This document shows, one piece after another, positions 2,336 through 3,448 of a stretch of DNA of 64,000 bases. Origin of the DNA: an uncultured Lentimicrobiaceae bacterium (GTDB lineage Bacteria > Bacteroidota > Bacteroidia > Bacteroidales > 4484-276); assembly GCA_964593705.1 (NCBI GenBank), contig CAZQIV010000018.1, positions 586 to 64,585 of the forward strand. Direction: 5' to 3'. The position numbers and the translations under genes were made by a program. Under the pieces are notes generated by a model. The model saw only the letters and a program-made list of their open reading frames with translations, ran no database searches and was not told the DNA's origin. Position 1 is the stretch's first letter; the number at the start of each line of letters is the position of its first letter.

Positions 2336-2461
2336 ATGTATTTAATACAAATATTATATCTACTAACATGGCCGGGAGTTATCCTGCTTTCATATTGGCT
2401 GGTAAATTATTACCTGAAAAAACTCGATAAAAAACTTGCCAAAGACGGCGAAGAAATTTAG
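2336..2461 (+). CDS. 41-codon single-TM small protein, CydX-like candidate (below the ORF-track cutoff)
   Basis: ATG at 2336 and TAG at 2459-2461, translated by hand as MYLIQILYLLTWPGVILLSYWLVNYYLKKLDKKLAKDGEEI. One N-terminal TM helix plus a charged tail. It lies 38 nt after the cydB stop and is followed by an intrinsic terminator. Confidence 0.5.
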   Translation: MYLIQILYLLTWPGVILLSYWLVNYYLKKLDKKLAKDGEEI

Positions 2462-2482
2462 GTTAATGTAATTTTAAGATAA

Positions 2483-2516
2483 ACGGCAGAACTTACTATT
2501 CTGCCGTTTTTATTTG
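2483..2516 (+). terminator. intrinsic terminator of the cyd operon
   Basis: Stem ACGGCAGAA (2483-2491) pairs with TTCTGCCGT (2499-2507), with a 7-nt loop, followed by TTTTTATTT. Confidence 0.8.
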
Positions 2517-2575: not shown

Positions 2576-3388
2576 ATGAAAAAACTCACGGCAATTTTGT
2601 TGCTACTATTTTCGGTAACTTTACTTCCGGCACAAACACTTTCGGGGCAGGCTGAGAACAATGAACCAACTCATTATAAAAACACGATGGAAGTCAGCGA
2701 CTTTACCGTTGTTGATTCTGACGGTGTTGAATGGAATCTTTACACACTACTCGACGGGGGAACAACGGTTATTCTCGACCTGTTCCAGAGTACGTGAAGT
2801 AGCTGCCAGGTATATGCTCCAATTTTAGAAGAAGTATATATCAACTGGGGAGAAGGTCAGGCCGATGTACAGATGATTAGCCTCACACCTTACGATGATA
2901 ACCAAGTAATTAACGAATACAAAGCACAATTCGGGGTTACCAACCCATGTGCCGGCCAGGAAGGTGGTTCTGGCGAGGCTATCGCGAAAATAATTGATGG
3001 CCAGCAATTTTTTGGCTATCCTACATATTGCGTGGTTTGCCCGGATAAAAAATTGCATTTCAATGTATGCTCTCCGCCCGATACTGATTGTTTTGACGAA
3101 TTTATTATTTCCTGCGGCGCTACTTCAACGGATGAAATTAAAACCGAAACTGAAGAAATTCATGTTTATCCAAACCCGGCTACTGATAATATTACGGTGA
3201 TTTTTGATGGTGTAAATTACACTTCCATTGAATTGTACAATGCTATGGGTGAAAAGGTAAAAAGCCTGAACCTGTCTTCACAGAAGAATTCGTTTAGCTT
3301 TTCTGTTTCAGACCTTCCTACAGGAATTTACTTTTTAAGAATTGGAGATAAAATAAACCAAACAACCAGAAAAATCAGCATTAAATAA
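2576..3388 (+). CDS. secreted thioredoxin-fold (TlpA/redoxin-like) protein with T9SS C-terminal domain; single in-frame TGA (Sec candidate, or a recent pseudogene)
   Basis: ORFs 2576..2797 and 2873..3388 share a frame, and the 75 nt between them contain no stop. The N-terminus is a signal peptide (MKKLTAILLLLFSVTLLPAQ). The sequence VILDLFQST-TGA-SSCQ matches the Trx-fold LDFWATWCxxC segment. The C-terminus (VYPNPATDNITV...GIYFLRI...KISIK) is a Por-secretion-tail type T9SS domain. Confidence 0.6.
2795..2797 (+). other. in-frame TGA at the position of the first redox Cys (U-S-S-C)
   Basis: Codon-by-codon reading gives acg(T) tga agt(S) agc(S) tgc(C) cag(Q). Confidence 0.9.
2809..2842 (+). promoter_or_regulatory. 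possible SECIS-like hairpin
   Basis: GGTATAT (2809-2815) can pair with ATATATC (2836-2842) with one G:U, and the stem can extend inward by G:U, C:G and U:A. It starts 11 nt after the TGA. It is AU-rich and imperfect, and was not validated by any model. Confidence 0.25.
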
Positions 3389-3417
3389 AAAGCGCTTTCC
3401 TGATTAAGAAAAAAACA

Positions 3418-3448
3418 AGTAGCACTATCTTATGGTGCTGCTTTTTTG
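3418..3448 (+). terminator. intrinsic terminator
   Basis: Stem AGTAGCAC (3418-3425) pairs with GTGCTGCT (3435-3442) with one G:U, followed by TTTTTTG. Confidence 0.7.

Follow-up and report, generated by a model that had tools for sequence, protein, structure and literature searches.

Background

Thioredoxin-fold selenoproteins in which selenocysteine (Sec, U) takes the place of the first cysteine of a CxxC redox centre, giving UxxC, are an established class that includes the TlpA-like 'thiol-disulfide isomerase-like' family, and selenoproteins that are exported or located in the outer membrane are also known (PMC1088965, PMC13188914). That family, which goes back to Zhang and Gladyshev 2005, is characterised by the motif UxxC and an assignment to cd02966 (PMC1088965, PMC13188914). 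Here we describe a locus in a 64-kb stretch of DNA from an uncultured Lentimicrobiaceae bacterium (contig CAZQIV010000018.1; the whole stretch is called the window, and positions are counted from its first letter) at which such a redox centre appears to be joined to the C-terminal sorting domain of the type IX secretion system (T9SS). Judged by comparison with its relatives, window 2576..3388 is very likely a single gene for a secreted selenoprotein, the UGA at 2795-2797 being decoded as Sec.

The protein of the window could be compared with the 'thiol-disulfide isomerase-like' family by name, motif and cd02966 description. On that footing the two are alike in having Sec for the first Cys of CxxC in a TlpA/ResA-like fold, in having Cys homologues and a stem-loop after the UGA, and in being truncated in annotation; the window protein differs in scoring below the TlpA/ResA cut-offs, in its T9SS tail, in extra conserved cysteines that include a second CxxC, and in its occurrence in anaerobic Bacteroidales. 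ResA, TlpA, DsbE (CcmG) and DsbF share with it the fold, an active site at the N-terminus of helix alpha-1, a cis-proline loop and an extracytoplasmic location. They have Cys in the redox centre, face the periplasm or outer leaflet as membrane-anchored proteins or lipoproteins, and receive their electrons from CcdA/DsbD. The window protein is predicted to contain Sec and to have no anchor, its signal peptide being cleavable and its C-terminus a T9SS tail, and no CcdA/DsbD gene was found within the window. Type A cargo proteins of the T9SS (gingipains, and the proteins whose C-terminal domains are solved as 8glj and 8glk) resemble it in combining a signal peptide with a Por_Secre_tail domain, which here scores above the curated cut-offs.

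Full-text literature searches returned no T9SS cargo reported to contain selenocysteine and no link between selenoproteins and the T9SS. The new element at this locus is the T9SS tail, UxxC thioredoxin-fold selenoproteins being a known class. The initial annotation of the window, made from its letters, had called a Sec-containing, T9SS-exported oxidoreductase unusual; that word fits the T9SS tail and fits neither the UxxC thioredoxin fold nor export as such, both of which have precedents (PMC1088965, PMC13188914).

A single frame broken by one TGA

Translation of window 2576..3388 on the forward strand gives 271 codons (270 residues and a stop) in which TGA 2795-2797 is the sole internal stop, at the position of residue 74, and in which there are no further stops or frameshifts. 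The two open reading frames (ORFs) on either side, 2576..2797 and 2873..3388, lie in this same frame and no stop interrupts the 75 nt that separate them, so that the 813-nt frame is broken by one TGA only, as the initial annotation had stated. The residues around the TGA read VILDLFQST-TGA-SSCQVYAPILEE. Terminator-like hairpins stand on both flanks (Table 1), indicating that the candidate forms its own transcription unit, and directly after TGA 2795-2797 no terminator-like site was found.

Database products for this locus consist only of a 73-aa and a ~171-aa fragment. Gene callers halt at the UGA and resume at Met100, yielding two truncated entries. When the merged protein was searched against the databases, 34 Sec-type homologues of ~170 aa were found, all of which (34/34) cover the post-TGA part only, from which it follows that gene callers cut them at one place; the search also gave a few full-length homologues that have CVFC or CPPC at the aligned site. 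The locus 2576..3388 is very probably one gene, misannotated as two truncated ones. Because of the same truncation, the Sec-type family as a whole, together with a second family (CxxU) described below, is invisible in current protein catalogues.

Across the whole window TGA is a rare terminator, used by 3 of the 36 non-nested ORFs that reach 120 aa and by none of the 26 that reach 200 aa; TGA stop fractions in related loci are similar to this 3/36, and the Sec-type orthologues at loci L031, L032, L036 and L044 terminate at TGA, although that of L036 may not be a true stop. Within real genes, the 64 kb contain no in-frame TGA other than the one at 2795. A genome-wide reassignment of TGA was considered and ruled out on these grounds, namely that TGA ends 3/36 ORFs, serves as a stop in related loci, and is found in frame within a real gene just once in the 64 kb. 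Recoding of UGA is site-specific.

A conserved TGA/Cys column with purifying selection on both sides

The DNA sequences compared were those of the window, three genome loci from metagenome-assembled genomes (MAGs) labelled Lentimicrobiaceae, and 42 metagenome loci. In 24 independently assembled loci (20 distinct sequences) the identical column holds TGA, within the motif T-U-[S/G/P]-x-C, and the distinct TGA orthologues are ~38-84% identical at the protein level, with identity to the window protein going as low as ~38%. TGC or TGT stands in that column in 22 loci (19 distinct homologues), giving CxxC in place of UxxC, and the databases hold ~50 full-length Cys-type clusters. Orthologues thus keep TGA at this column and more distant homologues have Cys, and the TGA is kept while many synonymous sites in the flanking codons vary.

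Pairwise ratios of non-synonymous to synonymous substitution (dN/dS) among Sec-type sequences were 0.14 over the 32 codons that precede the TGA, 0.34 over the 25 between it and the internal ATG, and 0.12 over the following 40, with a dS of 0.99 in the hairpin segment described below compared with ~1.6 in its flanks. As estimated from these alignments, purifying selection acts on either side of the TGA, and the decay of the downstream part that a disabled gene might display is not seen. A conserved TGA together with low dN/dS makes it very unlikely that the locus is a pseudogene, that the TGA is a sequencing error, or that it is a real stop with a separate gene behind it.

The closest orthologue in the genome collection is 55% identical to the window protein; the closest MAGs that bear the gene carry the label Lentimicrobiaceae and encode a CydB with 87% identity to that of the window. 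One truncated Sec-type member (P0033) is labelled by NCBI as a 'Clostridia bacterium' MAG though it is T9SS-tailed, probably through an error of labelling or binning. The residue 26 codons past the Sec codon, where gene callers place their start, is Met in 18 of the 20 Sec-type sequences, and every Cys-type sequence, L050 and L051 (see below) among them, has Phe, Val or Leu there; this Met may reflect re-initiation after termination, or mere clade history.

Fold, active site and export signals

A profile of the redox domain built from 24 family members matched ResA 4nmu with E = 2.6e-11 and Bacillus subtilis ResA with E ~1e-7, the latter over nearly the whole domain. The profile alignment sets the U/C column against the first Cys of the ResA CxxC and the G-Y-P-T-Y segment against the cis-proline loop, whose P and T are invariant across the family. 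The AlphaFold model of a Cys homologue (P0026, 42% identical to the window protein) has a domain pLDDT of ~97 and a helix that starts at the CxxC, and a Foldseek search with this model gave target-normalised TM values of 0.72-0.83 to ResA, TlpA-like, DsbE, DsbF and DipZ-C domains, in keeping with a thioredoxin fold that has the insertions of the ResA/TlpA type. The initial annotation had aligned the TGA with the nucleophilic Cys of the TlpA/thioredoxin segment by eye, and on this point family profile and structure model agree with it. Sec would thus very probably lie at the nucleophilic first Cys position, at the N-terminus of helix alpha-1, of a ResA/TlpA-type fold, to judge by profile alignment and homologue model. 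None of the curated cut-offs of Pfam Redoxin, AhpC-TSA and Thioredoxin_8 or of NCBIfam ResA was reached (Thioredoxin_8, 16.3 bits vs 27, E = 0.013; ResA NF002854, 24.5 bits vs 170, E = 2e-5), and the protein is a distant relative of ResA/TlpA that stands outside the curated Pfam and NCBIfam families.

Its export signals are those of a T9SS cargo. A signal-peptide pattern of ~19 residues followed by Gln is found in nearly all family members; substrates of signal peptidase I in Bacteroidota typically show such a pattern. Residues 197-269 match Por_Secre_tail (Pfam PF18962) with 59.7 bits against a cut-off of 27, TIGR04183 is matched with 49.7 bits against a cut-off of 23, and the domain also matches the solved T9SS C-terminal domain structures 8glk and 8glj. 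The signal peptide and complete sorting domain of the initial annotation are thereby borne out, the former by inspection and by its recurrence throughout the family, the latter by scores above curated cut-offs. All complete members have the T9SS tail with the exception of L036, whose ORF ends at TGA without one. A subgroup of Sec-type proteins (L031, L032, L033, L040, L044, L046; ~432-456 aa) has an extra PKD-like module that follows the redox domain and precedes the T9SS tail, and L036 (>=716 aa) has PKD-like and further domains; its frame may continue beyond the TGA or hold another recoded codon.

A covarying stem-loop tied to the TGA forms

Inside the coding sequence, nucleotides 2809-2818 pair with 2833-2842 to form a helix that begins 11 nt past the TGA. 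This spacing is that of the minimal selenocysteine insertion sequence (SECIS) element of Escherichia coli fdhF. Its conservation was assessed in 19 distinct Sec-type and 18 Cys-type sequences, which are free of indels and all in register, with columns numbered from the T of the TGA as 1. In the Sec-type sequences the main helix (15-24/39-48) and the additional pair 26:37 are paired in 92% of cells, or 88% when the lower helix (12-14:52-54) is included; this lower helix, 2806-2808/2846-2848 in the window, is confined to close relatives. Eight pairs have changed on both sides, for example 17:46, which is C-G in 13 sequences, U-A in 4 and G-C in 1. The covariation score of 0.279 compares with 0.147 in shuffles, none of 500 of which reached the observed value; slid controls were 22-50% paired, and RNAalifold recovers the main helix unguided. 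The apical region is 10-14 nt long and AU-rich, with an invariant G at +34 (window 2828).

The same columns of the Cys-type sequences are 35% paired, which is not above their own slid controls, while the encoded peptide is near-identical (CQxYAP[VI]IEE[VI]Y). Two Cys forms, L050 and L051, fall on the Sec side of the neighbour-joining tree, being 63-66% identical to Sec forms and 60% to other Cys forms, and keep only 5-6 of the 10 pairs. On this comparative evidence the hairpin is an RNA structure that has been conserved together with the TGA. The AU-rich hairpin at 2809-2842 in the initial annotation is accordingly present, and it covaries in TGA forms only.

Compared with the fdhF-type SECIS, the element is alike in being a stem-loop within the coding sequence, in its onset 11 nt after the UGA and in its conserved apical G. 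It differs in an AU- and GU-rich helix whose stability in single sequences is unremarkable and in an apical region of 10-14 nt instead of a small loop, and binding by SelB is predicted. In BSepDB, 12.6% of the catalogued bacterial selenoprotein genes are without a canonical element (PMC13326102). The hairpin is a well-supported, non-textbook example that could be used to better the models of bacterial SECIS elements.

Selenocysteine machinery in relatives

The contig with the Sec-type orthologue L022 also carries, at a distance of 2.2 kb, a tRNA-Sec gene (ARAGORN anticodon TCA; Rfam RF01852, 64.5 bits against a gathering score of 47). This tRNA gene was used as a probe of the genome collection, in which a stricter tRNA-Sec probe matched 9 loci, none of them labelled Lentimicrobiaceae. 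The sel locus of Bacteroidales has the order selC(tRNA-Sec)-selA-selB-yedF-selD, where yedF encodes a TusA-like protein, with all matches above NCBIfam cut-offs. A Lentimicrobium sp. MAG (L202) has, among the matches listed, SelA at 534 bits (cut-off 268) and SelB at 321 bits (cut-off 242); no tRNA-Sec was found in the gap preceding its selA. Database SelA clusters are 55-58% identical to the Lentimicrobium SelA. These matches indicate that the Sec trait exists in the Lentimicrobium lineage or family, and from such relatives the organism of the window would be expected to be Sec-competent.

Weighing the alternatives

An interrupted ORF is by default taken for a pseudogene or an error, and TGA is one base away from TGC; the initial annotation had itself named a TGC-to-TGA mutation or a sequencing error as the alternative. 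That 20 distinct sequences, obtained independently as to sample and assembler (JGI, ENA, Logan, NCBI MAGs), share the TGA, in frames without extra stops or frameshifts and with dN/dS of 0.12-0.34 on both sides, effectively refutes this explanation. Nor is there more than a very small chance that the TGA is a genuine stop, with a 73-residue secreted peptide and a separate 171-residue protein starting at ATG 2873. Gene callers consistently yield both of these products and the internal Met is shared by most Sec forms (18/20), but the 25 codons between TGA and ATG are under purifying selection and match the Cys-type homologues residue for residue, no terminator-like site follows directly on the TGA, and the split would sever the thioredoxin fold right within its active site, leaving a T9SS half without a signal peptide and a signal-peptide half without a fold.

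Slightly less remote, though still improbable, is read-through of the UGA without selenocysteine, in which a near-cognate tRNA would put in Cys or Trp and the hairpin would be a general stimulator of read-through or pausing. It would accommodate an apical hairpin part that is not a textbook SECIS loop and a window in which no sel genes were found. Trp, however, is unable to replace the nucleophile, and Cys can be encoded directly, as the Cys-type homologues do, so that a UGA kept across this range of divergence (~38-84%) would be hard to explain; the recoded site, moreover, is the catalytic Cys of a CxxC, the classic Sec/Cys pair, and SelA, SelB and tRNA-Sec occur in the lineage, once on the contig of an orthologue.

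Confidence in a selenocysteine-containing product must be tempered by several considerations. Its selenium content and its secretion are predicted from sequence comparison and domain content, it matches no curated selenoprotein hidden Markov model in NCBIfam, and no reductant partner is evident for a reductase exposed at the surface. The window hairpin taken by itself is no more stable than shuffles (fold of 2795-2860, z = -0.36) and as a single sequence is not evidence, its significance coming from the comparative data; its apical part is larger than in textbook bacterial SECIS elements, no Rfam family matches anywhere in the window, hairpin included, and, with Sec and Cys forms falling for the most part into clades of their own, some of the contrast between their hairpins may be phylogenetic. 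Neither a sel gene nor a tRNA-Sec was detected in the window (ARAGORN found no tRNA and Rfam no family), a negative that is uninformative because sel genes need not adjoin the genes they serve, and the sel genes that were found belong to relatives other than the three gene-bearing Lentimicrobiaceae MAGs. The conserved TGA, the Cys homologues, the selection on both sides and the TGA-specific hairpin nevertheless support the Sec-containing, T9SS-exported oxidoreductase that the initial annotation had put forward as a candidate, and those of its refuting conditions that were checked all spoke for Sec.

Proposed mechanism

If the UGA is a Sec codon, SelB with Sec-tRNA(Sec) would decode it at 2795-2797, and comparison suggests the stem-loop 11 nt downstream as the recruiting signal. 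The product would be a ResA/TlpA-like thiol-disulfide oxidoreductase with a U-S-S-C redox centre. Going by its domains, the signal peptide would take it across the inner membrane and the type A sorting domain would direct it through the T9SS to the cell surface or the medium. There, Sec would attack the disulfide of a substrate, or another oxidised sulfur or selenium species, to form a selenenylsulfide that the Cys three residues on would resolve, and Sec may ease re-reduction of the centre and hinder its over-oxidation where the usual CcdA/DsbD electron supply is missing. We infer, in short, SelB-dependent insertion, passage through the Sec translocon and then the T9SS, and selenenylsulfide chemistry outside the outer membrane. 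Were this true, anaerobic Bacteroidales would have selenoenzymes on their surface or release them, which raises the question of what their substrates are there and how they are recycled without CcdA/DsbD.

A second T9SS-tailed candidate family beside sel loci

A second candidate selenoprotein, of ~598 aa, begins with a signal peptide, and its T9SS sorting domain is the sole Pfam or NCBIfam domain recognised in it. Its conserved in-frame TGA lies in the motif T-M-G-x-x-C-x-x-U-G-x-T-P-P-G (CxxU), followed ~13 nt past the TGA by the onset of a hairpin with a 7-nt, G-containing loop (AAAUGCA) and clear compensatory changes. The gene is found directly upstream of tRNA-Sec/selA-selB(-yedF-selD) in at least five Bacteroidales genomes, that of Lentimicrobium sp. 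(L202) included (Table 1). It looks like a second, unrelated family of T9SS-sorted selenoproteins.

With two unrelated families that each combine a Sec-UGA, a covarying SECIS-like hairpin and a T9SS domain, we see an even chance that T9SS-secreted selenoproteins are an unrecognised class in anaerobic Bacteroidales. If so, a main use of selenium in these bacteria would be redox chemistry on or outside the cell, where the reductants usually supplied in the cytoplasm or periplasm do not reach.

Table 1. Features of the selenoprotein candidate locus (window positions) and of related loci (positions within the locus named)
Feature	Location	Strand	Basis
Full coding sequence, selenoprotein candidate	2576..3388	+	Single frame, like-built orthologues, purifying selection on both sides of the TGA
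Signal peptide MKKLTAILLLLFSVTLLPA, predicted cleavage before Gln20 (A19/Q20)	2576..2632	+	By inspection: MKK, hydrophobic run
ResA/TlpA-like thioredoxin-fold redox domain, ~residues 38-181	2687..3118	+	Family profile against ResA, homologue model
Proposed Sec codon TGA, first position of U-S-S-C (2795-2806)	2795..2797	+	TGA/Cys alignment column, ResA CxxC match
SECIS-like stem-loop: main helix 2809-2818/2833-2842, extra pair 2820:2831, apical region 2819-2832, invariant G 2828	2806..2848	+	Covariation, RNAalifold
Internal ATG (Met100), gene-caller start of the 171-aa 'gene', not the real start if the TGA is a Sec codon	2873..2875	+	Database products begin there; preceding 25 codons under purifying selection
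Predicted cis-proline loop G-Y-P-T-Y, then conserved second CxxC (CVVC)	3014..3028	+	Aligned to ResA P-L-P-T-T
T9SS C-terminal sorting domain, type A	3164..3385	+	PF18962, TIGR04183, 8glk/8glj matches
Terminator-like hairpin closing the upstream cydA-cydB unit	2481..2509	+	11-pair stem, then T run
Terminator-like hairpin, 29 nt past the TAA stop	3417..3443	+	12-pair stem, then T run
Bacteroidales sel locus	L179 817-5961; likewise L186, L192, L195, L196		Curated cut-offs
CxxU candidate	L077 4121-5896	+	Beside sel locus
CxxU candidate	L178 2550-4346	-	Beside sel locus
CxxU candidate	L186 4001-5794	+	Beside sel locus
CxxU candidate	L192 3870-5663	+	Beside sel locus
CxxU candidate	L202 5792-7615	+	Beside sel locus, Lentimicrobium sp.

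Genomic surroundings

The cydAB neighbourhood upstream of the selenoprotein candidate is kept in the closest clade only. It was considered as a clue to function and rejected, given this restriction and the terminator-like hairpins that separate the genes. Between cydB and the selenoprotein candidate lies an ORF of 41 codons (window 2336-2461, forward strand) that is called in three independent assemblies and could encode a small cytochrome bd subunit.

Within the window, genes for components of the T9SS were not found. Its reverse strand carries, at 16662-40079, a single ORF of 7805 residues with Fib_succ_major, BACON and fibronectin-type domains and a C-terminal T9SS sorting domain; its product is a giant T9SS cargo, and the ORF is the second T9SS cargo gene of the window.

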